In this document: piece by piece, positions 4,892-57,859 of the stretch
Position numbering within the stretch: the first letter of the stretch is position 1
Layout of the letters: every line of letters starts with the position of its first letter
Notes under the pieces: generated by a model
Database searches by the model: none
What the model was told of the DNA's origin: nothing
Seen by the model: only the letters and a program-made list of their open reading frames with translations
Translations under genes and position numbers: made by a program
From: an uncultured candidate division Zixibacteria bacterium
GTDB taxonomy: Bacteria; Zixibacteria; MSB-5A5; GN15; FEB-12
Length of the DNA: 64,000 nt
NCBI GenBank assembly: GCA_963806185.1
Contig: CAWDXE010000007.1
Location: forward strand, 192,001-256,000
Reading direction: 5' to 3'

Positions 4892-5328
4892 ACATCCTCG
4901 AATATACACTTTTTGGGTCGGTGATAAAATATGGTTCTGGGAGTATTCCCAGTCGCCTCGGGGCCTCTTCTGGGAGGATTTTCGTAATGTTATATATAAC
5001 TTACGGTTACGCCGGTAAAGGGTGATTGCCCGATTTCCACGACAACAATTTTACAGTTTATTCTCATGTTCCGACCAAATCGATTGTCAGAAAGTATATC
5101 GGCGCAAAAGTGCGATTGGTTCACCTTGCGCAAGTTATTCACATATGAAGAATTAGGGGAATTTCCGGTGAAACTTACCCGGGGTGGTTTCGTAATGCTT
5201 ACTGTAGGGGGCGACCTGCCTTTTGTATTGGCCGGGGGCCCCCCAACAATGCATACTCGGATGTCCTGCCGGGCTTTTTGATGGGGAAGAATATTGCGGC
5301 GGGCGGGTAGCACAAACAGGTGAGTAGC

Positions 5329-11530: not shown

Positions 11531-11604
11531 TACGCCCGAGAGGATTTGAACCCCTAACCTTCTGGTCCGTAGCCAGACGCTCTATCCAGTTGAGCTACGG
11601 GCGC
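11531..11604 (-). tRNA. tRNA-Arg (anticodon ACG); CCA not encoded
   Basis: Reverse complement gcgcccgtagctcaactggatagagcgtctggctACGgaccagaaggttaggggttcaaatcctctcgggcgta folds as a cloverleaf. Confidence 0.97.
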
Positions 11605-12844: not shown

Positions 12845-13891
12845 CTATTTCATCAACATCATCTTTCGCGTTTCGGTATTATGCTCCGTAGTCACGCGAT
12901 ACAGGTAGACGCCGGAGGCAAGTTGGCTCGCGTCGAACTCAAGACTGTGGTCACCCGCGGTCAATTCCCCCAGGTTCCGCGACTCCACTGTTCGGCCAAG
13001 AATATCGAAGACATCCAGAGTAGCCGTCGAGCGGGTCGGGAGCGTGAAGGAAATTGTGGTGGAAGGGTTAAACGGATTCGGGTAGTTCTGATGGACCGCG
13101 AAACCGCCCGGCAGGTTGTCAGTCGGATCCTCCACGTCGGTAATCGACATTGAAATAGTAAACGAGCCGGTCACCGCTTTGGACGGATCGAGTTCTGAGA
13201 AGACTTCCAGGTTAACCTTGTTCTCCGTAACGGCGGAGAAAGTGGCCACCCGAATCTGGAAGTATACGTAAGCAGTCTCGCTGACATTGGCATAGGTCAC
13301 CGCCGTGGGGGCAAAGGATCGCCAGCCCAGCGGGTCGGATTCGGCGGCATCCATCGTAATGTGCATACCATAGAGATCCAGACCGTCGCCATCATTGCGA
13401 ACGCCCACGCGGAGAGTATACGTGTGTCCCGGGCCACCAAGCATATCGTCGGGGAATTCGATCCCCGTGATCGCGATATTGCCGGTCGCGGCCAAGGAAG
13501 CAGTGCGCAAGGTCTGATCGGTCCAGCTCGCGCTGCCGGCAGTCACCGCAGCCGGTCGGCCGTTGATCTTGAAGGAAATGGTCTGAGAATTCGTAGCCCC
13601 TTCATCGGCGGCAGAATTGGGGTCATCACCGTACACCGGCATAAACCCATAGGTGCCGGCTGTATGTACAGTGAAGGCGCCGCACTGCACTCCGTCGGGA
13701 TCAAAGGCGGAAACCACCGATCCGACGGGGAGGGCCCGACCGTTAAACGTAGAAGTCATGAGCGAGTCGTAGAACGACGTGAAATAAGGTGTCGGTGTGA
13801 TACCACCGGCCATTGCCGATCCGAACATCACCGTCACCGCGCTCAGGACACCGAAAAGAATACGAAATTGTTTGCTCACCGTTATCACCAC
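12845..13891 (-). CDS. Secreted protein with C-terminal FlgD/T9SS-A-like domain
   Basis: Signal peptide; HQNYPNPFNPSTTISF...ASGVYLYRV...RKMMLMK; N-terminal domain shared with the adjacent giant protein. Confidence 0.8.
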   Translation of the reverse strand: MVITVSKQFRILFGVLSAVTVMFGSAMAGGITPTPYFTSFYDSLMTSTFNGRALPVGSVVSAFDPDGVQCGAFTVHTAGTYGFMPVYGDDPNSAADEGATNSQTISFKINGRPAAVTAGSASWTDQTLRTASLAATGNIAITGIEFPDDMLGGPGHTYTLRVGVRNDGDGLDLYGMHITMDAAESDPLGWRSFAPTAVTYANVSETAYVYFQIRVATFSAVTENKVNLEVFSELDPSKAVTGSFTISMSITDVEDPTDNLPGGFAVHQNYPNPFNPSTTISFTLPTRSTATLDVFDILGRTVESRNLGELTAGDHSLEFDASQLASGVYLYRVTTEHNTETRKMMLMK

Positions 13892-13952: not shown

Positions 13953-16900
13953 CTACTTCAGCAGCATCATCTTCTTGGTTTCCGATGCCGCGCCGGCGGA
14001 CAACCGGTACAAGTAGATACCGGAAGCAACCGACTGTCCATTGAGATCTTTACCGTCCCAGACCACGGTCGTGGAACCGGCAGTCGCCATACCGTCGAAC
14101 GGTACTGCAACCAGCGCGCCAAGGACGTTGTAAATCTCAACCTTCGCATTGCCGGCCACCGGCAAGGAGAAGCTGATTGTCGTCGACGGGTTGAACGGGT
14201 TCGGGTAGTTCTGGCCCAGAGCGAAGGAGGCCGGAAGTGTGCCGGCACCGGCGGCCGTCGTCAGAGCGCCGACTTCCATTCGGTCGCCATTGGCCGTCCA
14301 GGTAAACTGCTCCTGAGTCTCTACGCCGTCGACAGACAGGTAGAAGGCATCACCCGGCTTCAGAGCTGACGAAGCATCGGCGTATACCGGCATGAAGCCG
14401 AACTTGCCGCTCGTGGTCATCGTGAAGATGCCGACTTTGGTGCCATCAGCCGCCGAATGGGCGGTAATGACTGCGCCGGCCGAGACTACATTGCCGTCAA
14501 CCTTCAGATTAGTTGCATACAGGTTCACCCAGGCTGTCGTTGTGGCGACATCGCCGGCGGCCGCCGCAATGTTCGAATTCTGCACAACGTAGCGCGGGGT
14601 TGCGACGGTTTCGTCACCCGGATAGACCAGCGTGCCGTTCGCGTCAATCTTGACCCAATAGCCGTTGCACGGGCTGAGCGTCAAAGAAGAGTCGGCGAAG
14701 TTCGGCGAATAGAACTTGATGCCTTCGTCCCAGCCGTAGGCATAAAGCAGCTGATCAAAGATGCTCGCGAAACCGTCGGCCGGCTTCATTGAAGTCTCCG
14801 GCAGGTAGCTCACCAGGTTCCAGCCCTTCGTGACCGGAATCGGAGTTGAAACGGGTACCGCGGTACCGGTGAGTTCGAGGGTGACGGAACAACCGGGCTT
14901 CACTTTGATCCAATAGCCGTGGAGGTGATCAACCGACCAGAGGTCGGAGAATTCTTCAAGCTCCGGATCATAGGTCATGCCACCCTGGTCGAAGCCAAGT
15001 ACGACGTCGACACAGTTCAAATAAGGGCCAAGCACGGTCTTGATGTCGTCGGAAGCAGTGTTGACGTTCCAGCTCACCAGATTCCAGCCCTCTTGCAGGG
15101 TGCAGGTCTTGGTGACTTCTTCGCCGGCTTCAACACAGACTTCTATCCGCGGGTACATGTGATCCCCGGGGAAGGTGACGCTGGGAGTAGCTGGGATGCC
15201 ATTGACGTAGAACGTGATGGCCTGATCGGTGCGCGCGCCGTTAGTGGCGGTCTCATCATCGGCAGCATAGACATGAAGCGGGCCATAATGGCCGACGCTA
15301 TCAACGACACACTGACCGACGAGAAGCATCTCAGGCGTGTACGCCTCAACCACTGAACCAACGGGGATCGGGGCGCCAAAAAGCGTGCTCATGTTGTCAC
15401 CCGTGCCGCAGATGTAGTCGACCCAGAACAGGGACTTTTCAAAGGTGATATCCTTAAGGGGCTTCAGGACGATCTTCTCGCCCTTTTCGCGGAAGTTCAG
15501 ATTCTCGACCCGGCCGGGATAGTATCCCTTTTTGTACGCATATACGTCGAACGGAACTGCTGAGAAGTCGGAGAACGCAAACGAGCCGATGGCAGTTGAA
15601 ACTGTGGAATCGATGGGTGAACCGTTTGGCCAATCGGCGTAAAGAAGAACGGTCGCGCCGGGGATATCATTACCCAAGGTATCGACAACCGTTCCGCAAG
15701 TGAAGTTCTGTAGTCCGAACCCGACGTTTATTGAACCAGGATAGGATATGGGCTGATCATAGACCAAGCCTGTTCCGCAATTACGGCCGAAGACGACCGA
15801 ATCCATTACCGCGAAATCCTTTTCGCCTGCGGAAGCGTCCGGTCGAACCGTAAAGTGCATGTCGGCCAGATTGCCGAAACCGGTCGGCACCAGGTAGGCA
15901 TCATCGGCTATCGCTTTAATCGTCACTGTACCCAGGACGTTGTCGATCGTTACGAATTGCAGTTCGAAGAAGGTGATGCGGGAATTGGCGAACGACACGG
16001 AGTCCAGATAGAACTCAGCCGGGTTGAAGTGCAGGCCGAATTCCGCGGATTTGAAGTCACAGCCATTCTTGAAATTGATCGGAACGACCACCCGTGCACC
16101 GGGGACAGCAGGCGTGTTCACCACGACAAGTGTGTCGGCGGAGGCCGGCTTCACGACCAACAGGTTGACGCAATACGACACCTGGCTGTTGCATATCTGT
16201 GCGACCTTGGCAGTCGGCTCATCCGTCGCAAACGTTACGCAATACTGGTAGGTGCCGGCGGTGGCCGGTGTAACGGTAAACGTGAGTCCGACCACGCTGG
16301 GCGTCGTGCCGTTATCGCTGCTTAGCACAAAGGTCCCGTCATGAATAGCGTGCCAGCTCAGTTCATCCGGACTGGTGCTCGTCAATAACAACGAATCGGC
16401 CTTCGTATACGTATCGCCGAGGAAGATCGTGTCATAGATTGCGGTCTTATTGAGCGCCAGAATCGGACACTCACTGATGATCAAGTTGACTTTCACCCAC
16501 TGCGGCGAATTGACCACGGCAGCGGAGGTCACCTGAACGGAATCAGTGTACGTACCGGCGGCCAGTCCGGTGATATCCGGAGTAACGACAACGGAATCGG
16601 GCGTGTTGCCTGACGTCTTATTCAAGGCGAACCAGCCGGCGCCCTCAGTGACGGCGAACGCAACCACTGCGTCATCCTGCTCGGAAACGAGGAAGGGCTT
16701 TGCCTCCGGATTCGGGCCACCCAGGAGCGCCGTGAAATCAAGCGACGTCGGGCTTACCACGAGATGTTTCGGCGGTTCGTTGACAGTGACGTGAATGCAC
16801 ACCTGCACCGATGACGGATCGCAGTCAGCGGGAACAAGCTCGCCGGTAGTGCCGATCGTGAAACACTCGGTGTAGGTGCCGGCGGTGGCGTATGCTTTCT

Positions 16901-18899
16901 TGAACTGGAAGCCTACGACTCCCGGCGTAATACCGCCAACGGGATCGAAGGCGAAGTTCGGAGTAGCAGCGGCAGCGAAATCAAGGTTGCTGCCACTTGA
17001 CGTTACTGAGACGGTCTCACTGAGAGTCAGACTATCGCCGACCAGACCGACGAGGTTGAACGACAGCGGGTCGCCAACCAATACGGGACAGGATGAAACC
17101 ACCAACTTGACCGCAACTTTCTGCGGTGAGTTAGTAGCAGCGGCGACAACGGCAATCGTGTCTTCATAGGTGCCGACAGAAAGGCCCGTGCCGTCGACAT
17201 TGACCGTGACCGTCTTCGGGGTTGTGCCGGCGCCGTCGGTGAGAGTAATCCAGGTCGCGGATTCGCTTGCCGCGTACGCGATAGCCGCGCCGCCCTGTTC
17301 CGAAACATCAAACGTCTTCGGAGCCGCTACAGGACTGGAAACGGTGACCGCAAAGTTGAGATTGAGTGGCGTAACCACGAGTACCTTGGGTCGCGGATTT
17401 ACCATTAAGTGGACTCTCACCCATTTCGGCGAATTGTTCGCCGCGGGCGCCGCCACCTGGATAGAATCCACATACATATTGGGGGCTAGGCCGGCGATAT
17501 CTACGTTCACCGTGACGGTTCCCGGAGTATTGCCGCTTGCATCCAGCAACGAAAACCAAGCGGCGGTTTCAGTCGCATCAAAAGCGATGATCGCTCCGCC
17601 GGCCTCGGTGACTTGGAACGACTTGGCGGCCGGATTTCCGTCACCTTCAGTCGCTTCAAAATTCAGGATAGTCGAATCGACGGCCAGTACTTTCGGCGCC
17701 GCGTTGACGGTCAGATTGACCATCACCCAGATTTCCGGATTCGTGGCGGCACCGGCGACGACGAGGATTGAGTCGTTGTAGACACCGGGAGTCTTGCCGG
17801 TCATGTTGACGTCGACACCGACATCACCCGGAGTCATTCCGCTGGGATTTGTCAAAAGAACCCAGGCGGCATCAGTCGCCGAATTATAGGATATGGCGGC
17901 CCCAAGCTGTTCGGATACGTGGAAAGACTTCGCGTCCGGGTTGCCGCCTTCGGTAACCTCAAAATTCAACACTAACGGACTGACGACCAAGACCTTCGGC
18001 CGGGGAGTCACCGTCAGGATGACCTTCACGTACACCGGTGAATTGGTCGCGTCAAGAGAAGATACCTGAATGGAATCCGTGTACGTACCGGCGGTCAGAC
18101 CCGTAATGTCGGGGTTGACCGTGACGATGCCGGGAGTAGTGCCGTCAGGATTGGTCAAGCTCATCCAGGCGGCGGACTCGGTCGAGGTGTAAGCGATTGG
18201 ATGGGCTGTCTCCTCGCTGACCGTAAAGTTCTTGCTTGCCGGATTGGGATCGTTCTCCTGGGCGCTGAAATTGAGAACGGCGTCGGACACCTGGAGCTTA
18301 AAATTTGACGGCGGCACATAATTCGGGTCATGAATTACGATCTTGCCGGGCCATCTGGGGATGTAGCTGACCGACGGCGGCGCGACGAACTTCAGGATAG
18401 CGCCCGCCGCAAATGCGTTGGTGTCGACCACAATGGAGTCGTTCACCGTCCAGTTGTCGACCACGAAGTTGTAGGTCGCCAGTTTGGTCGGAGTCGCACT
18501 CGCAGGAAGTCCGGCCTCTTCGGTCTGTCGAGCACCGGAGGCCTGGAAATTACGGAAGAGATTTGTTTGGGCGATATTGTTACTGCGATAGAGGTACTTA
18601 ACGAAGTCCCACGCAGCAAGTCCGTCAGCTGTCCAGGCGGCGGACTTCATCCTTACATCCGTTCGGTCCCACTTGAACCCGCAGGAAGCGCTGGCCAATT
18701 TCTGGACATCGTTGGAGAAGTAAATCTCCATCTTAAACGTCGAGTCATCAGCGGCTCCCGCCACAGGTGGGGTCACGACGAAGAAGACCGAGTCCTGACC
18801 ACCCTGATCATTGGGGTCCTGTTGCGCAAAGCCGGGGATAGCCAAGAGCAACAACAGGGACAGGGTCCCGATTACTGTTTTGAAGTTCATCTGAAACAT
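13953..18899 (-). CDS. 1648-aa secreted scaffold-like protein: two cohesin-like domains, about 7 BACON-like Ig repeats, GWNLVS repeats, FlgD/T9SS-A-like tail
   Basis: Signal peptide; ~100-aa repeats LxVxPxxLxF..AAW..GxTP..GxYxDxIxV..NSP; DTLVVVNTPAVPGARVVVPINFKN..LDSVSFANSR; NYPNPFNPST tail; ggaggg SD. Confidence 0.8.
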   Translation of the reverse strand: MFQMNFKTVIGTLSLLLLLAIPGFAQQDPNDQGGQDSVFFVVTPPVAGAADDSTFKMEIYFSNDVQKLASASCGFKWDRTDVRMKSAAWTADGLAAWDFVKYLYRSNNIAQTNLFRNFQASGARQTEEAGLPASATPTKLATYNFVVDNWTVNDSIVVDTNAFAAGAILKFVAPPSVSYIPRWPGKIVIHDPNYVPPSNFKLQVSDAVLNFSAQENDPNPASKNFTVSEETAHPIAYTSTESAAWMSLTNPDGTTPGIVTVNPDITGLTAGTYTDSIQVSSLDATNSPVYVKVILTVTPRPKVLVVSPLVLNFEVTEGGNPDAKSFHVSEQLGAAISYNSATDAAWVLLTNPSGMTPGDVGVDVNMTGKTPGVYNDSILVVAGAATNPEIWVMVNLTVNAAPKVLAVDSTILNFEATEGDGNPAAKSFQVTEAGGAIIAFDATETAAWFSLLDASGNTPGTVTVNVDIAGLAPNMYVDSIQVAAPAANNSPKWVRVHLMVNPRPKVLVVTPLNLNFAVTVSSPVAAPKTFDVSEQGGAAIAYAASESATWITLTDGAGTTPKTVTVNVDGTGLSVGTYEDTIAVVAAATNSPQKVAVKLVVSSCPVLVGDPLSFNLVGLVGDSLTLSETVSVTSSGSNLDFAAAATPNFAFDPVGGITPGVVGFQFKKAYATAGTYTECFTIGTTGELVPADCDPSSVQVCIHVTVNEPPKHLVVSPTSLDFTALLGGPNPEAKPFLVSEQDDAVVAFAVTEGAGWFALNKTSGNTPDSVVVTPDITGLAAGTYTDSVQVTSAAVVNSPQWVKVNLIISECPILALNKTAIYDTIFLGDTYTKADSLLLTSTSPDELSWHAIHDGTFVLSSDNGTTPSVVGLTFTVTPATAGTYQYCVTFATDEPTAKVAQICNSQVSYCVNLLVVKPASADTLVVVNTPAVPGARVVVPINFKNGCDFKSAEFGLHFNPAEFYLDSVSFANSRITFFELQFVTIDNVLGTVTIKAIADDAYLVPTGFGNLADMHFTVRPDASAGEKDFAVMDSVVFGRNCGTGLVYDQPISYPGSINVGFGLQNFTCGTVVDTLGNDIPGATVLLYADWPNGSPIDSTVSTAIGSFAFSDFSAVPFDVYAYKKGYYPGRVENLNFREKGEKIVLKPLKDITFEKSLFWVDYICGTGDNMSTLFGAPIPVGSVVEAYTPEMLLVGQCVVDSVGHYGPLHVYAADDETATNGARTDQAITFYVNGIPATPSVTFPGDHMYPRIEVCVEAGEEVTKTCTLQEGWNLVSWNVNTASDDIKTVLGPYLNCVDVVLGFDQGGMTYDPELEEFSDLWSVDHLHGYWIKVKPGCSVTLELTGTAVPVSTPIPVTKGWNLVSYLPETSMKPADGFASIFDQLLYAYGWDEGIKFYSPNFADSSLTLSPCNGYWVKIDANGTLVYPGDETVATPRYVVQNSNIAAAAGDVATTTAWVNLYATNLKVDGNVVSAGAVITAHSAADGTKVGIFTMTTSGKFGFMPVYADASSALKPGDAFYLSVDGVETQEQFTWTANGDRMEVGALTTAAGAGTLPASFALGQNYPNPFNPSTTISFSLPVAGNAKVEIYNVLGALVAVPFDGMATAGSTTVVWDGKDLNGQSVASGIYLYRLSAGAASETKKMMLLK

Positions 18900-20194: not shown

Positions 20195-20423
20195 TACGCG
20201 ACCTGTCTATCCCTGTGTCTGGAACGGACTATTCAGCGCCGTAATTATCCCCTCGTTCGCGGAGTAGTTATTGAACGTGGGGTGACGTATTGACGGGAAT
20301 TGTGAAATAAATCGCCGACCCGCCTGCCAGTGTCTGCGCGACAGGTAAGAGCGACACAGGTGAAGATCAGAACGCATGCAGGTCGTCGGCACAACGTGTA
20401 GTTCTTGTAGTTATAGGACGGTT

Positions 20424-22736
20424 ATGTCTGGGAGAACCCCAACCTGGGTCTTGCCGGGGATGCTTGTAGGCGTCATTCTCGGCGGACTGCTCGGCTTCTA
20501 CCTACCTGATGTCATGCTCTCGGCGAGCTTTGTAGGTAAGCTGTTTACCAACGCCTTACGTATGCTGGTGATCCCGCTTTTGGTGGGCACCTTGATTGTC
20601 GGAATCGGCCAGATCGCCGACAATCGCCGTCTCGGTCAAATCAGCGGGATGGCACTTGTGTATTACCTTGGTACAACGCTATTGGCGGCCATAGTGGCTG
20701 TCGTCACGGTCAGTCTTCTGTCGCCGGGTGTGGGAGCGAACCTGGTCGGACTGGATTCCATGCCCAATCTTCCGAGCGCCGGCGGTCGATCGCTCACCGG
20801 CATTCTGGGGTCCATTTTTCCGGAGAACATTATCCGCGCCATCATCGAAGGGCAGTATCTCGCGATTGCGGTGTTTGCCGGATTGCTCGGCGTGGCTCTG
20901 ACGTGGCTGGCGTCACGCGGGCGAAGTGTCGTGTCGTTCTTTATGGAAGTCAACGACGCACTTATCCGCCTCGTGTCGTTTGTCATGTATGCAGCCCCGG
21001 TCGGTTTACTGTTTCTGATGGGTGGCGTGGTAGCCAACAGCCGGAGTTCGTTTGGCGAAATGGCCGGCACGCTCGGCATGTACACGCTCACCATAGTGGC
21101 CGTGCTTCTCGTCATCGGCGCAGTGATTTTCCCGCTCATTTTCATTGCGGTCACCAAGCGGAGTCTCGGCTCTTATCTGAACAACATGTCGACAGCCCTG
21201 ACAACGGCGTTTGCGACATCATCGTCTGCCACGGCGTATCCGATCACGTACGACGCTGTAATCGATACCAATCGCGTCGACAGCAAGGTGGCCTCAGTGG
21301 TCCTGCCGATGGGTCTTGGTTTGAACATGGCGGCGACGGCGGCCTATCTGGTCGTGGCGACCGTGTTTGCCGCACAGGCGTTCGGGGTCGACCTTCCGTG
21401 GCCCAATCTCATCTTATTGGTTTTGACGTCGTGCGTTGTCTCACTGGGAACGCCCGGGATGCCGTCAGCAGGGTTTCTCCTTTTGACGACTACGTTTACC
21501 ATTGCGGGACTGCCGCCCCAGGCGCTGGTGGCGACCGGGATGATTTTTGCCGTTGACTGGCTTGTCGACCGTCTGCGAAGTACAGTCAATGTCTGCGGCG
21601 ATGCAACGGCCGCGGCCGTTGTCGCCGATGGGGTTGAAGAAATGCGCTCGACCAGCCGCTCTACGATCGGGCGATCCCAGGCCGGCCGCGAAAGAACAGG
21701 TCGTCCTGCGGAGAGCAGAGATTCCAGAGAGGATCGATTTGCCGCCCGTCGCGGCGGCCGATTCGGCCGACCCGATCAACGGCCGGGCCGTGACCGGGTG
21801 GAACGACCGGACAGATCCGAACGTCCGGAGCGGGCCGAACGTCCGGAGCGAGGTGATCGGGGAGATCGTCCGGAACGCGGGGATCGCGGCGATCGGCGTC
21901 CTGGAAGTCGGCCTCGGTTTGACGAACGACCGCGCGACCGTCAGGAACGGACCCGACCCTCGCCGTTCGAAATGCCGGCGTCGACTATGCCGGCGCTCGA
22001 CGAACAGCCATCGGCTCCGGAAATCAGCAAACCGGACCGTCCCGAACCAGTAGATCGTCCCGCCATGTCCGAGCGCTCTGAACCGAGAAATGTCCCGGAG
22101 AGGGGCGAAAGCAAAGAACGTCCCGATCGCAGTGACCGGCCGGAGCGTCCTGAACGGCCGGAAAGGTCCGACCGGGAACCGCGTCGCGATAGATATGACC
22201 GCCGCGGCCGCGGGCGATTCGGAGACCGAGATCGCGGTGGGCGCCCCGACGGAACCGAAGGAGGCGGACCGCGACCACCCCGTGCTCCATATGTAAGGGA
22301 ATCATCAGGTGCAACAGCGCCAGGCGAAATGGAAGATCCGAGCATCGAGGTGAAGCCCGAATCCTTCGAGCCGGCCGAGTCGCCACGTGCCTCCGAGCCA
22401 GCCCCGTTGGCCGAGACACTACGTCCGATTCGGCCGACCGAGCCGACGGAAACGGCAGTGCCGACTCCTCCGCAGAGCCGGCGTCCGTTTGAGCGCTCCG
22501 AACCGGCACGCACGAGTGAACAGGAGGGGGCCAGAGAGTCGACGTCGAACGAGAGCACCCAACAAGAAGGTTCACAGGAGTGGGGGCGCGGTGTGAAACG
22601 GAGGGGTAGAATGGTGGGTGGAGAACACTCCGCTGAAGAGACTCCTGCTACCCCAACGCCTGAACCGACATCCAGTTTTTCCGCGGAGAATATCGAATTT
22701 GGAGGGCGGGGGCGGAAACGCAAACCAATTGTCTGA
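20424..22736 (+). CDS. Dicarboxylate/amino acid:cation symporter (DAACS/GltP family) with long disordered C-terminal extension
   Basis: GKLFTNALRMLVIPL, FPENII, ATSSSATAYP, PMGLGLNMAAT, DWLVDRLRSTVNVCGDA, then a ~365-aa R/D/E/P-rich tail. ATG 20424 follows aggacg. Confidence 0.9.
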   Translation: MSGRTPTWVLPGMLVGVILGGLLGFYLPDVMLSASFVGKLFTNALRMLVIPLLVGTLIVGIGQIADNRRLGQISGMALVYYLGTTLLAAIVAVVTVSLLSPGVGANLVGLDSMPNLPSAGGRSLTGILGSIFPENIIRAIIEGQYLAIAVFAGLLGVALTWLASRGRSVVSFFMEVNDALIRLVSFVMYAAPVGLLFLMGGVVANSRSSFGEMAGTLGMYTLTIVAVLLVIGAVIFPLIFIAVTKRSLGSYLNNMSTALTTAFATSSSATAYPITYDAVIDTNRVDSKVASVVLPMGLGLNMAATAAYLVVATVFAAQAFGVDLPWPNLILLVLTSCVVSLGTPGMPSAGFLLLTTTFTIAGLPPQALVATGMIFAVDWLVDRLRSTVNVCGDATAAAVVADGVEEMRSTSRSTIGRSQAGRERTGRPAESRDSREDRFAARRGGRFGRPDQRPGRDRVERPDRSERPERAERPERGDRGDRPERGDRGDRRPGSRPRFDERPRDRQERTRPSPFEMPASTMPALDEQPSAPEISKPDRPEPVDRPAMSERSEPRNVPERGESKERPDRSDRPERPERPERSDREPRRDRYDRRGRGRFGDRDRGGRPDGTEGGGPRPPRAPYVRESSGATAPGEMEDPSIEVKPESFEPAESPRASEPAPLAETLRPIRPTEPTETAVPTPPQSRRPFERSEPARTSEQEGARESTSNESTQQEGSQEWGRGVKRRGRMVGGEHSAEETPATPTPEPTSSFSAENIEFGGRGRKRKPIV

Positions 22737-22764
22737 TCGCTTTGGCTAACTAGTTATCGGACAT

Positions 22765-22799
22765 AAGGCCCGAACCGCCATACTGGCAGTTTGGGCCTT
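22765..22799 (+). terminator. Hairpin after the DAACS gene (probable terminator)
   Basis: aaggcccgaaccgcca-tac-tggcagtttgggcctt; weak T tract. Confidence 0.5.
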
Positions 22800-22908
22800 C
22801 CGATTTTGCGGAACTTTGAGAACTGAGTTTCGCTATATCTGGTGGAGAAAGTAGTTGACCGGCATCGTGCCGGTCGGTTAACTGATCCCAGGAGCTACGA
22901 GAGAGAAT

Positions 22909-23778
22909 ATGAATAGTGTAAAAGTTGCCCTATTGATGGCTGTGCTGCTGATCCTGTTCATGTGGGTCGGCGGTATCGTCGGGGGGCGTAACGGCATGAT
23001 CTTGGCGTTCGCGATGGCGACTCTGATCAATGTCGGAACGTACTGGTTTTCGGATAAGATTGTTTTGAAGATGTACGGCGCGCGCGAAGTGACCGAGGCT
23101 GATCATCCGAGACTTGTTCGCATTGTCAAACGGGTGACCACGGCGTCATTGATGCCGATGCCAAGAGTGTATATTGTGCCGAGCAAGGCGCCGAACGCTT
23201 TTGCGACGGGACGTAATGCCGAAAATGCCGCGGTGGCGGCGACGGAAGGCATTTTGGAGTTGCTCGATGACAGTGAACTCGAAGGCGTGATTGGCCATGA
23301 AGTCGCCCATATACAGAATAAGGACATGCTGATCGGGACGATCGCGGCAACTTTTGCCGGGGCCATCGGCATGTTGGCGAGTTTTGCCAGATGGGGCGCA
23401 ATCTTCGGTGGAGTGAGCCGTGATGGAGAGCGCGGGAGTAATCCGATTGCGCTGCTGGTTGCGGCGATTGTGGCGCCTTTGGCGGCGATGCTGATTCAAA
23501 CGGCCATCTCGCGTCAGCGTGAGTACAAGGCGGATGCCGAGGGTGCCCGTATCACGGGTAAGTATCTGCCTTTGGCGTCAGCGTTGCAGAAGCTGCACGC
23601 GTCACCCAAACGCGCTCTGCTGGGTGAACATAAGTCTACGGCCAATCTGATGATCGCGAATCCGCTTTCCGGAAGCGGGATCATGCATCTGTTTTCGACG
23701 CACCCGCCGGTTGAAGAGCGCGTTAAGCGGCTTCAGGAGCTGGCGATGAATCCGCCGGCGACGGTCTACCCGGGTTGA
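22909..23778 (+). CDS. htpX: Zinc metalloprotease HtpX (M48)
   Basis: PNAFATGR, HEVAH, ISRQREYKAD, LFSTHPP. Confidence 0.95.
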   Translation: MNSVKVALLMAVLLILFMWVGGIVGGRNGMILAFAMATLINVGTYWFSDKIVLKMYGAREVTEADHPRLVRIVKRVTTASLMPMPRVYIVPSKAPNAFATGRNAENAAVAATEGILELLDDSELEGVIGHEVAHIQNKDMLIGTIAATFAGAIGMLASFARWGAIFGGVSRDGERGSNPIALLVAAIVAPLAAMLIQTAISRQREYKADAEGARITGKYLPLASALQKLHASPKRALLGEHKSTANLMIANPLSGSGIMHLFSTHPPVEERVKRLQELAMNPPATVYPG

Positions 23779-23833: not shown

Positions 23834-25153
23834 ATGGATGACCGCCTCTGGATAGAGATCGGTGCAATTTGTGTGCTCGTGTTAGCGAACGCATTCTTCG
23901 CGCTGGCCGAGTTCTCGATCATTGCCAGCCGAAAGAGCAAACTTCAGCAGGAAATTCAGGATCGCAAATCCGGGGCCCTGGCTGCCGCGCGCCTGCATGG
24001 TAATCCCGAGAGTTTTCTCGCGACTATTCAGGTGGGTATTACGCTGGTCGGCGCCCTGCTGGGGGTTTTCAGCGGTGCGACACTGGTCACACGGCTGGAG
24101 CAGATCATCAGAGCGGTGCCCTTATCCGGCATTGCCGAGTACGCCACGCCAATCGCTTTTGGTCTCGTCGTGTTTGTGTTGACTATCCTGAGCGTAGTCA
24201 TTGGCGAGCTCCTCCCGAAGTACATTGCCCTGTCGCATCCGGAGCGCTTCGCGCGCCTGATCGCTCCCCCGATTACGCTGTTCCTGAGAGTTACCGCGGT
24301 GTTTGCACGATTTCTCGGTTATCTGGCGCGGCTGATTGCCGGGCTGTTGGGCGTGCGGCGCGACGCCTCTCAGAACGCGATCACCGAGGATGAAATCAAT
24401 CACATGATCATCGAGGGAATGGAGAAGGGAATCTTCGACGAGACCGAGCAGGAATTAATTCGGTCGGCCTTTTCATTTTCCGACTCGACTGTCCGTCGCG
24501 CGATGCGTCCGCGCACCGATGTCGTGGCGATCGACGTGAATGCAACGCCGGAGCAGGTTCAGAAGATCATCTTCGACAGCAACTACAGTCGCTATCCCGT
24601 GTACGAACGCACGATCGATAATATCGTCGGTGTACTCTATGTGAAAGATCTGATTAGCCGGGCGATCGACTTGAACTCCATTTCCCTTCGAGATTTCCTT
24701 CGCAAACCGCTTTTTGTTCCTGAGTCGATGGAATTGTCCCGCTTGCTGACTGAACTCAAGAAGGGTTCGACCCACCTTGCCATTATCCTGGATGAGTTCG
24801 GCGGCACGGCCGGGATCGCCACGATTGAAGATGTGCTCGAGGAGATAGTCGGCGAAATCCAGGACGAATACGATGCGGAGCTGCCTCCGGTGGTGAAGCA
24901 TTCGGACACGATCGCGTACGTCGACGGGGCGGTCTGGCCCGGCGAAATTAACGAATTGCTCGGAGTGCATCTTCCGGAAGAGACAGCTGACACCATAGCG
25001 GGGCTGTTTATCGAGGAGGTCGGTCATCTGCCGGATCGATACGAATCAGCTCGCATTGCCGACGTGAAGTTGACGATTCTCGCGAAAGACCGTAATCGGG
25101 TCCTGCGGATGAAGATTGAAAAGGTGGTTGCGGGAGCAGCCTCCGCCGAGTAG
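23834..25153 (+). CDS. CNNM-CBS-CorC (HlyC/CorC, hemolysin family) membrane protein
   Basis: NAFFALAEFS, TIQVGIT, GELLPK, YSRYPVY, DEFGGTAGIATIEDVLEEIVGEIQDEYD. Confidence 0.92.
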   Translation: MDDRLWIEIGAICVLVLANAFFALAEFSIIASRKSKLQQEIQDRKSGALAAARLHGNPESFLATIQVGITLVGALLGVFSGATLVTRLEQIIRAVPLSGIAEYATPIAFGLVVFVLTILSVVIGELLPKYIALSHPERFARLIAPPITLFLRVTAVFARFLGYLARLIAGLLGVRRDASQNAITEDEINHMIIEGMEKGIFDETEQELIRSAFSFSDSTVRRAMRPRTDVVAIDVNATPEQVQKIIFDSNYSRYPVYERTIDNIVGVLYVKDLISRAIDLNSISLRDFLRKPLFVPESMELSRLLTELKKGSTHLAIILDEFGGTAGIATIEDVLEEIVGEIQDEYDAELPPVVKHSDTIAYVDGAVWPGEINELLGVHLPEETADTIAGLFIEEVGHLPDRYESARIADVKLTILAKDRNRVLRMKIEKVVAGAASAE

Positions 25154-28561: not shown

Positions 28562-29302
28562 ATGCCCAAAATTCCACAACAGGTTCTTCCGATCGTGTTG
28601 ATTTTCTCGTTTCTCATTGCGGCGCTTTTAGTTGGGCGGGCGATTCTGATCCCCAAAACGTTTGGAGATTTCGGTTTCTACCGTGCCGCTGCGCTCGGCG
28701 AGATCTCAGCTTTGCCCCAATCATATGCCGGTGGGCGTGTGTGCGGGGATTGTCACACTGATGAGTGGGAAGCCAAACAGGGGTCGCACCATGCCTCTGT
28801 CGCATGCGAATCTTGTCACGGACCCGCATTCGCCCATACGGAGAGCCCGGATGAGGTTCAGCCAAAGGTCAATTCGGGTCGCGACGCCTGTACTATCTGT
28901 CATGGGTACAACATATCGCGGCCATCCGGTTTCCCGCAAATTCAGGCTGATCTGCACAACGCCGGTCAAAAATGCATCATTTGCCACAACGCCCATGCCC
29001 CTGAGTTGCCGAGCGCGCCGGGAGAATGTGCCGCCTGCCATCGAACAATTGCCAACCAAAAGCGGGTATCCCGTCATGCCGCACTGGGGTGTGAGACCTG
29101 CCATCCAGTACCGGCGGAGCATAAGATATCACCTCGCACGGCCAAGGCCCAGCGACCGACATCGCAGGAAGTATGTCTGAAATGCCATGCGGGGACGGCT
29201 GCTCTACCGCTTGAGGCGCCGCAAATTGATGCTTCGACCCACGGGGGGAGTTACCTTTGCTGGGAATGCCATTACCCTCACGATCCGGAGGCGAACCGAT
29301 GA
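28562..29302 (+). CDS. Membrane-anchored octaheme c-type cytochrome
   Basis: Eight CxxCH motifs (CGDCH, CESCH, CTICH, CIICH, CAACH, CETCH, CLKCH, CWECH) and an N-terminal TM helix. Confidence 0.9.
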   Translation: MPKIPQQVLPIVLIFSFLIAALLVGRAILIPKTFGDFGFYRAAALGEISALPQSYAGGRVCGDCHTDEWEAKQGSHHASVACESCHGPAFAHTESPDEVQPKVNSGRDACTICHGYNISRPSGFPQIQADLHNAGQKCIICHNAHAPELPSAPGECAACHRTIANQKRVSRHAALGCETCHPVPAEHKISPRTAKAQRPTSQEVCLKCHAGTAALPLEAPQIDASTHGGSYLCWECHYPHDPEANR

Positions 29303-30072
29303 AACCAGAAGTACCAGACATGCCTCGCCGGGAGTTCCTGGAAACGCTGGCGGTCAAAGTGCCGCTTTGGCTCGCCTTTGCGACAGCCGTGCCGCGGTTT
29401 GTTGCCGAAGCAGCTTCGGACGATACACCCTACGATGCAACCAAGCACCTCTATGCGATGGGTGTCGATATCGACAAATGCATCGGCTGCGCCCGGTGTG
29501 TGGATGCCTGCAAGACAGAAAACCATGTTCCGCGCGAGCCGTATTTTTTTCGCACGTGGATTGAGCGGTATCTGATTCCAATGAATGGTGACGCGATTGT
29601 CGACAGCCCCAACGGCGGGCTGGACGGATTTCCCGAGGTCCACAGCGACGTCGCAATTCGTCGTTCATTCTTTGTCCCAAAACTCTGCAATCATTGCGCC
29701 AATCCGCCCTGCGTGCAGGTCTGTCCGGTCGGCGCGACCTTTTCATCGCCCGACGGCGTAGTGCTGGTTGATGGAGAGTATTGTGTGGGGTGTCGGTACT
29801 GCATCCAGGCCTGTCCGTATGGAGCTCGGTATCTTGATCCAGTCCGAAAGGTCGCCGACAAATGCACCTTCTGCTATCATCGCATCACCAAGGGGGGGCT
29901 GCCGGCCTGCGTTGAGGTATGTCCGACCGGTGCACGAATATTCGGCGAGCGCAATGAGTTGAGTTCGCCGATTCAGCGATTCCTTCGCTTCAACGACGTC
30001 ACGGTCCTCAAGCAGTGGCTGAATACGGCTCCCAAGGTGTTTTACGCCAACGCTGACATGGAGGTGAGGTAA
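29299..30072 (+). CDS. Tat-exported 4Fe-4S protein (NrfC/PsrB/TtrB family)
   Basis: PRREFL twin-Arg; CIGCARCVDAC, CNHCANPPCVQVCP, CVGCRYCIQACPY, KCTFCYHR..PACVEVCP; ATGA overlap with the upstream gene. Confidence 0.92.
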   Translation: MKPEVPDMPRREFLETLAVKVPLWLAFATAVPRFVAEAASDDTPYDATKHLYAMGVDIDKCIGCARCVDACKTENHVPREPYFFRTWIERYLIPMNGDAIVDSPNGGLDGFPEVHSDVAIRRSFFVPKLCNHCANPPCVQVCPVGATFSSPDGVVLVDGEYCVGCRYCIQACPYGARYLDPVRKVADKCTFCYHRITKGGLPACVEVCPTGARIFGERNELSSPIQRFLRFNDVTVLKQWLNTAPKVFYANADMEVR

Positions 30073-30075
30073 GAC

Positions 30076-31320
30076 ATGAAGCTCATCCTGCTGGCGATGC
30101 TTGATCAATTGTCCGGCGCGACCGGATACATATATCCCAACGAGTATGAATTGCACTGGGGTCTGCTCATTGTTGTCTATCCGTATCTCACCGGTCTGGT
30201 GGCTGGTGCCTTCATCCTGGCGTCACTCGAGAGGGTGTTCAACGTGAAAGTCCTCCAGCCGGTCTACCGGTTGTCTCTACTGACGGCGCTGGCATTCCTG
30301 TTTGTCGCCCCGATACCGCTGTTGAGTCACCTGGGCCATCCCGAACGAGCGCTCGAGATGTTCCTTACCCCACACACCGAGTCAGCCATGGCTATGTTCG
30401 GTTTTGTGTATGCCTGGTATCTCATGGTTGTGCTACTGCTGGAAATCTGGTTTGATTATCGCCGCGCGATCATCGAATGGGCCAACGAAAGCAAGGGGAT
30501 CAAGCGGCTGTTTTACAAGGTACTCAGCCTGGGGACGAACGATGTCACCGAGCGGGCACTGCAATTCGATGAAAAGGTCGGACGGACGATCACCTTGATC
30601 GGCATTCCCTCCGCTTTTCTTCTGCATGGATATGTCGGGTTCATTTTTGGGTCGGTGAAGGCCAATCCCTGGTGGAGCAGTGTACTGATGCCGATTGTTT
30701 TCTTGTTTTCGGCGATCGTCTCCGGAATCGCCATTGTGTTGATCATATATATGGTAAGCTCAATGCTTCGTTGGCGCCGAATTGAAATGAATTGCCTGAA
30801 CAAGCTGGGCGAACTGCTCTTGTATGCGATCCTCGTCGATTTCAGTCTTGAACTGCTGGATTTTGTGCACCGTCTGTATGAGTCGGAAGAGTCCATTCAC
30901 ATTCTTTCGGAAATGATATCGAGCCGACTATTCATTAGTCTGATTGTTTCACAAATCCTGTTGGGGACGGTCGGGCCGTTAATATTGTTGGCCTGGGCGA
31001 GATTCGGACGTTTGCCGGACGAAATGCGGCGGATTACCTACCTCATTGCGGCGCTGCTGGTGCAGGTGGGCATTTTCAGCACCCGGTGGAATGTCGTCAT
31101 CGGCGGACAACTCTTCTCCAAGAGTCTTCGAGGACTGACGGTCTACAAACTGGATCTCATGGGGCGCGAAGGGCTGTTTATGAGCATTGCGCTTCTTATC
31201 CTTCCGTTCATCATTCTGTTCATACTTACCAAGATACTACCGCCGTGGGATAAGAATGAGACGATTGTGCCAAGAGGCGGTCCGCTGACCGACACCAAAG
31301 CTGAAGCCGCAAGTGGTTGA
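30076..31320 (+). CDS. NrfD/PsrC-family quinone-interacting membrane subunit
   Basis: WGLLIVVYPYLTGLVAGAF, HLGHPER, LHGYVGFIF, RWNVVIGGQ; multiple TM helices. Confidence 0.9.
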   Translation: MKLILLAMLDQLSGATGYIYPNEYELHWGLLIVVYPYLTGLVAGAFILASLERVFNVKVLQPVYRLSLLTALAFLFVAPIPLLSHLGHPERALEMFLTPHTESAMAMFGFVYAWYLMVVLLLEIWFDYRRAIIEWANESKGIKRLFYKVLSLGTNDVTERALQFDEKVGRTITLIGIPSAFLLHGYVGFIFGSVKANPWWSSVLMPIVFLFSAIVSGIAIVLIIYMVSSMLRWRRIEMNCLNKLGELLLYAILVDFSLELLDFVHRLYESEESIHILSEMISSRLFISLIVSQILLGTVGPLILLAWARFGRLPDEMRRITYLIAALLVQVGIFSTRWNVVIGGQLFSKSLRGLTVYKLDLMGREGLFMSIALLILPFIILFILTKILPPWDKNETIVPRGGPLTDTKAEAASG

Positions 31321-31459: not shown

Positions 31460-33622
31460 CTATCTAAGCAGGATCATCTTCTTCGTCTGCGTGAACGTAC
31501 CGGCCTCCGCCCGATACAGGTAGACGCCCGAAGCATAGGCTGAGGCATTCCATTCAATACTGACCACCCCCGGCCCGCCATAGCCGTGGAACTCGTCCAC
31601 GACCTGGCCGGCGATGTTAATGATGGTGATGTGCCATTCGGACGCCACCGGCAATGCCAGGTTAATGGTCGTGGTGGGATTAAACGGGTTCGGGTAGTTC
31701 TGATCCAGCGCAAACTCCTTCGGCAATCCGCCGTCGGTATTCTCCTTTCGATCCGCATATATGATCGCACACGACGCCATCGCACAAGTGAAGGTGCTGG
31801 TCGCCACGCCGGAGTCGAAGGGCGCGCTGAACTCTTGAACCAGACCGGTAATGTTGGAGAAGTTTTGGCAACTATCGACGGAGAGACTTATCACCTGACC
31901 GCCCGACATGCAATTGATCGGCTCCAAACGGAATTTGGCCAGATTGGTGAAGTTGTCGCTGGCTGAAATGGCGACGTTTCCGGCCACGGCGTACCGCCTG
32001 CCACCCAGACTCGTGACGGAGATTCCAGTCAGGAGCGAAGCGGAACTGATCAGGTTTGCATTTGATGGGACGGTAACGATCATGCGTACACTGTCGATGA
32101 CGTTACTGTTCCTGATCCGCACGGTTTGCCAAATGCACCCGTTGCCAGAGACCGTGGTAGTGCCCGGCTGGGCCATTTCCACCAGGACAGAGTCGACCGT
32201 ACCCCGCTTGGGTGTGGCAATAAGATAGTCACAGAGCGCCGAGGGCGCTGTAGTCACGTATCCGTTCCACGTGGAGTCGAAGTGCGGTTTCAGATACCGT
32301 CCGGCCCATGTTGGAGAAAAACCGGCGGGGTCCCACTTCAGGATCAGCGCTACCCGATCGGTCAGGGGACTGGCCGGTATTGTGTCAACCGTGTTCTGAT
32401 AGATAGCCGTCTCGTCGCCCTGGAGAGGGGCCACGGCTTCCCAGCCCAGATTGGTGTCGAGGACAGTGTAGTCCGTAGCATCCAGATTGGCGGAATTGTC
32501 ATTGAATACAATGGTAACACCAGGATCGTATTGGCTCTGCTTCCCGACGGCAAGAGTATTCATGAGCTGAATGGTGTAGGTGACCGAACTCGTGTCTACT
32601 CTGCTGACCGTTGTCGACGAAGGCAGAGTCGCCTTGACTTCGGTCGAATCACGCATCGACAACGTGCCGCCACTGAAGACGGCCCCGATGCCGGCAAAAC
32701 AAAGATCAAAATGTTGACTTAGGCCGTAAGGGAAAGCGAGCTTGGCCGTATCCATGATGGACGAACTGCACTGGGGAGTTACCCAAATGCGGTAAAGGGT
32801 ATCACCCGTCGGTTCCGCTTTGGGTGTGAGAGTATATGTGGAAACGCCAATCGTATCGGTTCTGGTCGCGTCAACATCTTCGATAAACCAAACGCTGTTG
32901 AAGGAGATCGAATCGAAATGCAGCTTTGAGTGATTGTAACGAATGACGTGATCAAAACCTGCATATCGGTGATTCCCCTCGGCCAAAACAGGTATTGGGA
33001 TCGAGCGGCCGCGCGCGTTTGACACGGTCTGATAGGGAGTCCAGTACGCAAACCAGGAATCATCGACCGTCACGCCGCCTGCATAGCAGTGCCCGGAGAT
33101 CGGCGTGAAGAGATTTCCCGTGTGCTTGCTGACCAGATAGGTTCGTTCGCTTTGCATGACGGTCAGCGACATTGAGCTGAAATCGGGCAGGCACAGGGGA
33201 CTGAAATAGGCTGTCGCGAATTGGACGTAGCTGCTGGTCAGCGGCTTGCCGCCACTGGCAAAAGAGAGCGTGACCCGACCAACGGAAGCGGAGTCGATGA
33301 CGGTAAAACTACCATTCCAGTTTGACGTGGCTGCGGCACTAATGAAGTCGAGACTGCCCTGGTCATACTGAATGACGACAGTCATATTCAGAACCGAATC
33401 GGTGGTCCAGAAAGAACTGCTCGATTTCAGGTTGATCGGGATTTCTGCGCGAGTCAACGAGGTGTCGGTTCGCGTACCGTAGTTGAAAGAATAGTCACTT
33501 CCAAGTTGAAGATAGAGGCTGGTGTCGGAAATGATGATGTTAGGCGAGGCCATGATCAGCGGTGCCGTCAGGCACAGGGCGATCATGAGCGCGCTCAGGA
33601 GAATTATCCTTTTACCAAACAT
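31460..33622 (-). CDS. Secreted protein with tandem cohesin-like beta-sandwiches and FlgD/T9SS-A-like tail
   Basis: ATG 33622 after aaagga; signal peptide; AEIPINL..IQYDQGSLDFIS and SIPIPVL..IRYNHSKLHFDSISF segments; DQNYPNPFNPTT..ASGVYLYR..KKMILLR. Confidence 0.75.
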   Translation of the reverse strand: MFGKRIILLSALMIALCLTAPLIMASPNIIISDTSLYLQLGSDYSFNYGTRTDTSLTRAEIPINLKSSSSFWTTDSVLNMTVVIQYDQGSLDFISAAATSNWNGSFTVIDSASVGRVTLSFASGGKPLTSSYVQFATAYFSPLCLPDFSSMSLTVMQSERTYLVSKHTGNLFTPISGHCYAGGVTVDDSWFAYWTPYQTVSNARGRSIPIPVLAEGNHRYAGFDHVIRYNHSKLHFDSISFNSVWFIEDVDATRTDTIGVSTYTLTPKAEPTGDTLYRIWVTPQCSSSIMDTAKLAFPYGLSQHFDLCFAGIGAVFSGGTLSMRDSTEVKATLPSSTTVSRVDTSSVTYTIQLMNTLAVGKQSQYDPGVTIVFNDNSANLDATDYTVLDTNLGWEAVAPLQGDETAIYQNTVDTIPASPLTDRVALILKWDPAGFSPTWAGRYLKPHFDSTWNGYVTTAPSALCDYLIATPKRGTVDSVLVEMAQPGTTTVSGNGCIWQTVRIRNSNVIDSVRMIVTVPSNANLISSASLLTGISVTSLGGRRYAVAGNVAISASDNFTNLAKFRLEPINCMSGGQVISLSVDSCQNFSNITGLVQEFSAPFDSGVATSTFTCAMASCAIIYADRKENTDGGLPKEFALDQNYPNPFNPTTTINLALPVASEWHITIINIAGQVVDEFHGYGGPGVVSIEWNASAYASGVYLYRAEAGTFTQTKKMILLR

Positions 33623-34442
33623 GGTGAATCCTTTCTTGGGATATGACGATGCAATTTTCAGGTTCTCGTGGCCCTTTGCGTGTGTGCGGCCGTTCTCACC
33701 TCCTTTGGTCAGACAAGGCAAACGGGAAGACAGAGGCCCTGCTCTGCGCCGAAGTGTTAGTATGTGGCGACAACCTATTGCTCGATCCGCAGCTCGCGCA
33801 CGGTCTGCCAATGATTCGTTGGAACGGAGGATCCGAAGGCGCCTGGTCGCCAGTTGCCTAATGCCGATCTTCTCCGGAAAGAAGGATGCAATACGTCACT
33901 GTCAGAATCTGACAGTGCGAGTCAAAAAAAGTGACACCCCGGCCAACATTTCTCGGAGCATCCAGACAAGGCGCTCGCCGACGGCATTGTCCGCTCGAAT
34001 GAATGAGGACCAGCCGGCGGCACGTGTTCAGAGAGGCGCGGAAGAATCGATGCCAAAAGGAGATAGCTGAATGAGCGCGGGGGCGAAATGTACTCGGGAT
34101 CACTTTGGATATGGATGCGTCATCGTTGTGCCGCACGATCTGTCAGGATGCCGCTGTCTTCTGCGAGAGTGGAAAGTTCAACTTCCGACCGGTGAGAATC
34201 TGCTTGTCCTTGTTCGCCAATCAGTTGTCTGGATGCACCGGCATCGGTAGATTTTTCGCATGTGCTGTTGAGGCCACGATTGTCGACGGACACATGCGTC
34301 TCCATTTTTCCCGCTTGCCCTCCGCACTGACTATTTCTATCTTAGTACTCTATGATTGCGGACGTCACACTCCATCTATGCTATTATTGCATTGAACCAC
34401 AACATATTAGACTTGCCCGCACAACCTGTATCGAGGTGAATT

Positions 34443-57190: not shown

Positions 57191-57859
57191 CTAGTGCTTC
57201 TTGCGGCGCCAGACCATCGGCGCAACCAAGCCGAGACCGAGGGCCAGGAGGCTAATTGTCCCTGGTTCCGGAGTAGCAACGATCTGGACATTATCCAGCA
57301 GCATAGCTGAACTGGCCTGGTCCGGACCGTACCCCAGAGCAAAATAGAACAAGTAGAAATCCTGGGTCCCGCTCCACCCGGTGAGATCGTAGGTGAACCC
57401 TTTCATGGAGTAATAGCGCTGGCCCCACTGGTCGGTCTGCCAATCGCCTCCGCCCGTCCCTTTCGAGAAGATCGGATTGAAACCTCCACCTCCTGGATAC
57501 CCTACATTGATCTGCGCTCGGAAATCGTCGCCCCACGAAAGCTCATTGGTGATGAGTGTGAAGTCAAACCTCAGGGTCAACTGCTTGTTGGTAGGCAGAT
57601 TTAACACCTGATGCAACTCCGGATTCGGGTGATTGTCATCGCTAAACAGCACGGCGCACGGGGAATTGTCACCGCTCGGACTGCCGTACCCCATCCACGA
57701 GTTCGACGTAAAGACGTTCGAAGCCGGGCTTGAGGTCTGCCATCCGTTCAGGCCGCTGCTGAAGTCGCCATTGACGATCAGGTTGGGCAACGCGAACGAG
57801 CTGGTCACGCCCAGAAGAATCGCCACCATAATACCGGCGAGAATTCGCCCTCTTACCAT
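57191..57859 (-). CDS. PEP-CTERM sorting-domain protein with carbohydrate-binding-like domain
   Basis: Signal peptide, NLIVNGDFS..W, LDNV, C-terminal TPEPGT-TM-RRKKH. Confidence 0.9.
   Translation of the reverse strand: MVRGRILAGIMVAILLGVTSSFALPNLIVNGDFSSGLNGWQTSSPASNVFTSNSWMGYGSPSGDNSPCAVLFSDDNHPNPELHQVLNLPTNKQLTLRFDFTLITNELSWGDDFRAQINVGYPGGGGFNPIFSKGTGGGDWQTDQWGQRYYSMKGFTYDLTGWSGTQDFYLFYFALGYGPDQASSAMLLDNVQIVATPEPGTISLLALGLGLVAPMVWRRKKH

Follow-up and report, generated by a model that had tools for sequence, protein, structure and literature searches.

A transporter-family protein with a long, predicted-disordered tail in the Zixibacteria order GN15: a possible membrane anchor for RNA-processing machinery

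Introduction

The closest described relatives of the protein considered here are the transporters of the DAACS/SLC1 family (GltPh, GltTk, GltP and DctA). The protein is encoded on the forward strand at 20424..22736 of a 64,000-nucleotide stretch (positions 192,001 to 256,000 of contig CAWDXE010000007.1, assembly GCA_963806185.1), referred to in the following as the window, from an uncultured Zixibacteria bacterium of order GN15. It has the same membrane domain as these transporters and retains several residues of the substrate site, but differs from them in carrying a 366-residue tail and in reading NMAAT in transmembrane helix 7 (TM7), and some of its relatives have deleted the transport core altogether.

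A second comparison is with the scaffold region of RNase E from E. coli, Pseudomonas, Caulobacter and the cyanobacteria, the last with the motif RRRRRRSSA. In the parts of PMC11964227, PMC3964918 and 10.1101/272286 on which we draw, this region is membrane-tethered, disordered and Arg-rich; it contains short conserved motifs and closes with a basic one, much like the tail described here. In cyanobacteria and Caulobacter, polynucleotide phosphorylase (PNPase) is recruited by terminal basic motifs, whose sequences vary from group to group (PMC3964918, PMC11964227). The REER repeats of Pseudomonas RNase E bind RNA (PMC11964227), and charge blocks drive the formation of bacterial ribonucleoprotein bodies (BR-bodies) by Caulobacter RNase E (10.1101/272286). 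The tail motif is unlike all four PNPase-binding motifs in the cited part of PMC11964227. Unlike RNase E, the tailed DAACS protein has neither a nuclease domain nor sequence homology to the scaffold, and its anchor is a multi-pass transporter fold.

Transporter folds have been re-used for jobs other than transport in UhpC and CbrA, transporter-derived sensors or scaffolds that keep the substrate site for sensing. In the tailed DAACS proteins, by contrast, the site erodes or is deleted, and the output is an intrinsically disordered region (IDR) with short linear motifs rather than a kinase. Finally, the same [FY]GRx(K/R)(K/R) motif occurs after an acidic, Pro-rich spacer in a predicted-disordered segment, the linker of a TIGR03960/TIGR03936 fusion protein, but there it is internal and occurs once per protein, and the protein is a soluble enzyme distributed throughout the phylum and also outside it. 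In the literature that we searched (most subscription journals were outside its scope), we found no description of tailed or core-deleted DAACS proteins or of this FGR-basic motif, nor any description of how RNA is degraded in Zixibacteria.

Results

A single open frame joins the transporter domain to a conserved tail

The gene (P0001) is a single open frame running from an ATG at 20424, preceded by AGGAC, to a TGA at 22734–22736, and encodes 770 amino acids; an alternative, longer start is the GTG at 20376. PF00375 was the sole domain detected in the protein (residues 13–401, 20460..21626), far above its gathering cut-off (294.6 versus 27.9 bits, E = 1.5e-87), and solved homologues of the membrane domain were found with E-values down to 4e-60. 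No RNase E/G catalytic domain is present in the chain, and the curated NCBIfam cut-offs for DctA, GltP and SstT were not reached (166 of 513, 137 of 638 and 107 of 308 bits, respectively). The protein is a DAACS member by domain, lacks the NMDGT motif and is not an RNase E; at best, it would be an RNase E-like scaffold in trans.

Residues 405–770 (21636..22733) form a charged, Pro-rich tail of 366 amino acids, predicted to be disordered. A sequence-only reading of the window had noted a tail of about 365 residues with RPER, RPDR and RGDR repeats, starting at 21637, which is one base out of frame. The repeats occur six, two and four times, respectively, and the tail contains 75 Arg (20%), 52 Glu (14%) and 52 Pro (14%). 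With a 48-row alignment, AlphaFold2 gave a predicted local distance difference test (pLDDT) score of at least 70 for 393 of the 770 residues, covering the membrane part and none of the tail. TM8 was prolonged to about residue 420, and pLDDT was below 50 across nearly all of residues 426–770, in agreement with disorder.

The tail, on the forward strand throughout, opens with an Arg-rich block of RPER and RGDR repeats (21636..21959), which includes tandem arrays in the DNA with periods of 18 and 27 at 21801–21895. It is followed by an SPF...P.L motif (21960..21998) that is conserved in the window's family (f1), SPF being present in 38 of 63 full-length representatives. Toward the end of the tail, the two similar motifs that the sequence-only reading had pointed out were both located: a penultimate EWGRGVKRRGR (22578..22610; consensus [FY]GRxRxRRG) and a terminal FSAENIEFGGRGRKRK, containing IEFGGRGRKRK (22677..22724; consensus FSxExxSFGRxKRKRxR).

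In the assembly, frameshifts interrupt the genes for PNPase and RNase G (G000:C7:900614-902679 and C7:113821-114631), most likely through indel errors, and therefore an artefact had to be excluded for the tailed gene as well. Other split genes in the window, for example near 42599 and 59572, may likewise be indel errors. Read support was sought in four public DNA runs, in which no piece covers the whole gene; a 151-base contig from run X1 spans the TM8/tail junction (21547–21697) with 0 differences and 0 gaps, showing neither an indel nor a stop. The frame also stays open past the last helix in 52 of 52 fetched long-frame orthologue loci. Besides the frameshifts elsewhere in the assembly, an explanation of the tail as neutral sequence, or as an artefact of assembly or read-through, could draw on one relative (G001) with an in-frame stop within its tail. 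It is refuted by the conservation of the tail across the order and by ratios of nonsynonymous to synonymous substitution (dN/dS) of 0.07–0.38 in every pair of tails allowing an estimate, and we give it practically no credence.

Matches to the window protein were found in 59 of the 61 genomes of order GN15. All long-frame matches and a share of the short-frame matches were fetched, and among these loci 52 from all four families of the order had a tail of at least 100 aa, the length being about 210–480 aa. Forty-nine of these tails were complete, and 48 of the 49 ended in a [FYW]G[RG]-basic motif within the last 12 residues, so that the tail and its FGR-basic ending are shared by the orthologues. 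The exception (L231, G001:C149) has an in-frame TGA in mid-tail, with both motifs and a central amphipathic helix (L..tIeRE..kv..QL, present in 32 of 65 relatives) downstream in the same frame; the stop may be an error, a read-through site or a true split. In f1, about 40 residues separate the two motifs, which were located by pattern in 26 of 29 complete tails, and a two-motif profile matched 90 of the 108 genomes of the family. When 1.84 billion representatives were searched with this profile, 123 matches were obtained: 74 with a DAACS domain, 48 apparent tail fragments (judged by eye) and 1 unrelated protein.

Outside order GN15, no such tail was found: DAACS frames reached at most 551 aa among the matches listed, which did not extend to 88 weaker ones, and a family-model search of 10 genomes found DAACS frames of 413–493 aa in 9 of them. 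The region upstream of htpX was inspected for a tail gene, stand-alone forms included, in 14 genomes from other orders, and none of the 14 had one. A search for related loci with the single protein as query yielded no match; with an alignment as query, a search of 3 of 64 database parts returned 80 loci, mostly ordinary DAACS, and among the 51 that could be scored a long tail was seen solely in the Zixibacteria one. These surveys of frame length agree with the earlier statement that DAACS proteins normally end shortly after TM8.

The tail is retained after loss of the transport core

In 10 genomes from three genera, the membrane part is joined to the tail in one frame with helical hairpin 1 (HP1), TM7, HP2 and TM8 deleted. 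Nine of these proteins consist of TM1–6 of the DAACS domain plus the tail (G068, G069, G080, G159, G191, G218, G219, G022 and G198) and the tenth (G070) of about four transmembrane helices plus the tail; examples are L375:2348-3751 (G070), L377:1884-3563 (G069) and L064:2775-4427 (G022). They come from 25 loci chosen for inspection partly for their short frames, of which 10 were deleted and 11 had their full length; the other 4 ran into contig ends or could not be scored. The breakpoint of the four-helix form differs from that of the six-helix forms. All core-deleted proteins retain both tail motifs, and htpX, the downstream neighbor of the window gene, is still present at 9 of the 10 loci. 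For the four closest pairs, dN/dS (Nei–Gojobori) was 0.07–0.08 in the tail and 0.04–0.11 in the membrane remnant, the more distant pairs being saturated.

Because the core is deleted while the tail remains under purifying selection, the tail appears to be selected for a function that requires anchoring in the membrane and not a substrate site; very probably, it works without that site. The proposal that the tail is membrane-tethered is borne out, since it is fused either to the DAACS domain or to these remnants. The accompanying suggestion of a transceptor does not hold as a family-wide function, 10 genomes having kept a selected tail after losing the whole substrate-binding core, and a sensing role may apply to the copies of families f2–f4.

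Transport motifs and tail have parted company in the window's family

In the window copy, TM7 carries NMAATA (21324..21341) at the position of the canonical NMDGT, the nexus of the Na1 and Na3 sites and the substrate, the equivalents of D312 and G313 both being Ala. The TM8 motif DRLRSTVNVCGD (21567..21602) retains the equivalents of D394, R397, N401 and D405, with Ser for T398, and the serine motif TSSS of HP1 is present; the HP1 and TM8 sites vary across the tailed clade. N310, M311, T314, D394, R397, N401 and D405 coordinate aspartate in GltPh, according to the portion of PMC12668577 consulted, from which the role of D312 is also taken.

Exact NMDGT was found in 18 of 21 tailed copies from f2–f4 and in 13 of 13 tail-less paralogues from f1, versus 0 of 31 tailed copies from f1; for the E/Q318 equivalent the corresponding counts were 19/21, 13/13 and 0/31. 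All eight core sites were intact in 19 of the 21 f2–f4 copies, by a count that penalizes M311L, a change that need not inactivate. Most f1 genomes have two copies (13 tail-less ones were aligned of about 28 listed), with a mean identity of 37% for the tailed copies versus 73% for the tail-less ones. The tailed f1 copies have no transport site fixed (R397 in 23/31, D394 in 23/31 and T398 in 8/31) and form one long-branched clade with 100/100 support in a tree of 67 rows, from which fragments shorter than 330 aa were left out. In the 63 full-length representatives, which were retrieved via the terminal motif, that motif was present in 63/63, while exact NMDGT was present in 0/63, the position being scattered over 38 variants.

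As judged from these alignments, transport motifs and tail are divided between two paralogues in f1. The window copy has likely lost transport, and it is somewhat more likely than not that it no longer concentrates substrate. The single copy of f2–f4, which combines the tail with mostly intact motifs, and the retention of the D394, R397, N401 and T314 equivalents in the window copy would also fit a full-length tailed protein that is still a transporter or transceptor with altered ion coupling, the tail relaying or regulating its state. The lack of any fixed transport site in the tailed f1 copies and the 10 genomes in which the core is gone and the tail still selected count against such a role, which we consider quite unlikely.

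Charge pattern of the tail

The window tail is the strongest charged low-complexity stretch among the ORFs of its genome, with 20 scoring windows compared to 7 in one other ORF, and each of the 48 complete tails of at least 200 aa was net basic over its first third. Together with the basic-to-acidic gradient of these 48 tails, this could mean that the tail is a multivalent, RNA-binding or condensate-nucleating polyampholyte, in which the motifs are mere RNA stickers with no protein partner. Charge blocks and REER repeats have such roles in RNase E (10.1101/272286 and PMC11964227, in the parts cited), and 25 of 47 relatives' tails are blockier than shuffled sequences at 30 aa, within the 10–30-residue range of the alternating blocks of BR-body formers. 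The window tail itself, however, has well-mixed charges (z = −1.2 at 5–6 aa and −0.7 at 30 aa versus shuffles). The alternating charge blocks reported in the sequence-only reading are visible by eye, but the description is weak because the charges are no blockier than in shuffles; similarly, the proposed resemblance to the IDRs of RNase E and Rho extends to composition and not to sequence homology. Moreover, the invariant G-R preceded by an aromatic residue, its fixed distance from the C-terminus, the SPF motif and the helix have the look of docking sites, and we regard the polyampholyte explanation as unlikely.

Matches to the tail and to its last 66 residues in the ESM Atlas were all below 0.9 and fell in hypothetical clusters. 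A match to an RhlB cluster (0.76) was at chance level and was rejected.

The FGR-basic motif recurs in RNA-type proteins

The two-motif profile weakly matched one other protein, in 4–5 genomes: a fusion of a TIGR03960 radical-SAM protein with TIGR03936 (G000:C1:809987-812503, L287; further loci L234-L281). Its linker contains [FY]GRxKKK in 30 of 30 loci (in 3 of them after the frame was re-picked). In other families, 17 of 20 radical-SAM loci had the motif by pattern, 1 had a near match and 2 had none; among 120 distant homologues listed, 108 of the 109 that could be scored had it, including proteins named for KSB1, Calditrichia and Edwardsbacteria. G592-R593 of the linker was invariant in 45 of 45 rows of an alignment that left out two sequences without the motif. 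AlphaFold2 placed residues 578–607 of the fusion below a pLDDT of 50 and the remainder with confidence, so the motif does not appear to be packed on its own protein.

The model of the fusion matches B12/MiaB-type radical-SAM enzymes and, over its C-domain, pseudouridine synthases of the TruA/Pus type (E from 3e-7), and its gene usually precedes rsmB. These matches make it a candidate for an uncharacterized RNA-modifying enzyme. No function for DUF2344 was described in the literature found, as judged by titles. We presume that TIGR03960/TIGR03936 adjoins rne or rng in other phyla, but none of the Zixibacteria loci inspected showed this arrangement and it was not found in papers.

Of 30 DEAD-box helicases, 8 likewise terminate in an FGR-basic motif, among them that of the window's genome. 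A DEAD-box subfamily of f2 (L429, L433-L435) ends in an acidic spacer followed by [FY]GR-basic, like the transporter tail. In scans of 10 genomes, a short-motif profile picked up one DEAD-box protein besides the tail and the radical-SAM linker, its other matches being weak; as the profile was built from the tail and the linker, the scans are partly circular. PtsI-like and WYL-like proteins match the motif pattern in the window's genome, and an unrelated protein, P0148, has four FYKREISFGGKKKK-like repeats before a further domain, which we take to be PilM-like.

The presence of one motif in the linker of a radical-SAM/TruA-like protein and in some DEAD-box tails points to RNA machinery and agrees with the link to RNA metabolism proposed earlier. 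On balance, we slightly favor a motif partner that belongs to RNA metabolism. When the terminal 33-residue peptide was modeled with the G012 PNPase core and RNase G large domain, the complex score was 0.10 (mark 0.32), which speaks neither for nor against these partners.

RNase E/G was short in 101 of 101 genomes, with complete frames of about 505–640 aa from stop to stop, and Rho in the window's genome has 418 aa and no IDR; the common scaffolds of the IDR type are thus missing. In the window's genome, RNase G is encoded by a short gene of its own. In Zixibacteria (L303, L288-L317), RNase G has an acidic-then-basic insertion of about 25 aa in its S1 region and no C-terminal scaffold.

Genomic neighborhood

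The tailed gene is followed on the forward strand by two conserved neighbors, an htpX-like M48 protease gene (22909..23778) and a CNNM/CBS/CorC gene (23834..25153). htpX lies within 1.5 kb downstream at 43 of 53 tailed loci (4 lacked it and 6 were unscorable), compared to 0 of 13 tail-less paralogues. This shows that the tailed gene, and not its tail-less paralogue, holds the ancestral position. The htpX–CNNM pair is an older block that occurs without the tail gene in other orders. The spacer between the tailed gene and htpX (22737–22910) contains two strong hairpins (z = −5.35 for the whole spacer versus shuffles), a GC-rich one just after the stop (22765..22799, forward strand) and a second at about 22854–22882. 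A promoter and terminator scan found nothing above shuffles that bears on the tailed gene.

Peptides that combine aromatic and basic residues commonly bind acidic membranes. This, the frequent company of htpX and the repeated FYKREISFGGKKKK segments in the unrelated P0148 would suit motifs that bind anionic lipids or a proteostasis partner (HtpX or an AAA+ protease), with the tail as a spacer or degron unrelated to RNA. We find this improbable, as the htpX–CNNM block is older than the tail and independent of it, a strong hairpin lies between the genes, and the other carriers of the motif are soluble, RNA-type enzymes.

Elsewhere in the window are genes for large secreted proteins with FlgD-Ig/Por-type C-terminal domains (13956-18899, 12848-13891, 2165-4909 and 31463-33811), one of them with BACON-like repeats; such proteins are typical of the phylum. 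The window also contains a module of multiheme cytochrome c, 4Fe-4S and NrfD-type proteins (28562-31317), a tRNA gene identified with Rfam (11531-11604) and a PEP-CTERM protein gene (57194-57859).

Discussion

We propose that the window copy is a DAACS protein with an eroded TM7 motif, whose main role is now likely to hold a predicted-disordered tail at the membrane. The tail would lie on the cytoplasmic side, given the even number of transmembrane helices in the deleted forms and the DAACS topology, which we take to place the C-terminus in the cytoplasm. If the protein is a homotrimer, as assumed from the DAACS family (PMC12668577, in the part cited), each trimer would carry three tails and, with them, six motifs. 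RNA binding would fall to the Arg-rich block, and the FGR-basic motifs could bind one partner in common with the radical-SAM/TruA-like enzyme and some helicases, holding it at the membrane. Candidate partners would be a ribonuclease (PNPase, RNase G or RNase Y), the ribosome or a structured RNA. We consider the odds even that the proposal as a whole, an eroded transporter that anchors a tail docking RNA-processing machinery, is right. The more specific view that a transporter in GN15 has been turned into an RNase E-like scaffold acting in trans, with a trimeric anchor and an ancient FGR-basic motif that brings RNA machinery to the membrane, is rather doubtful.

Several observations weigh against this proposal. 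The window copy retains the equivalents of N310, M311, T314, D394, R397, N401 and D405, and proton-coupled homologues likewise lose Na+-site residues (PMC12668577, in the part cited); the window copy may therefore still bind or move substrate. Full-length f1 membrane domains are under purifying selection (dN/dS 0.08–0.25). No close tail-less paralogue was found in the window's genome, which is 82% complete and yielded a distant GltP-like copy only, and the central helix of the tail is absent from the window copy. A single origin of the six-helix deletions is tenable (approximately unbiased test, p-AU = 0.83), and independent origins are not demonstrable. With respect to the motif, two radical-SAM loci of other families lack it, its occurrence in DEAD-box helicases is patchy (22 of 30 are without it), and no close TIGR03960 match was found in the two f2 genomes searched, though f2 keeps the tail. 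A motif so short and basic may have arisen by convergence, as a generic binder of RNA or anionic lipids, and RNase Y, a membrane-anchored nuclease, is already present in the window's genome.

The tailed proteins and their relatives make up a rare and complete evolutionary series, in which an SLC1 fold gains a tail, splits into a transporter and a tailed copy, erodes and finally loses the core for transport, selection on the tail being maintained throughout. The core-deleted forms are also a natural deletion experiment on SLC1 that bears on whether the TM1–6 scaffold folds and trimerizes alone. Since the motif is common to an uncharacterized and widespread radical-SAM/TruA-like enzyme, one peptide pull-down could reveal the partners of both proteins. 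If the partner is RNA machinery, the tail would represent a new way of placing RNA processing at the bacterial membrane, and families with intact transporters could couple the turnover of RNA to the uptake of amino acids. The protein of the window's family would then be a transporter in the course of reduction to a mere anchor, all stages of which survive in living genomes.

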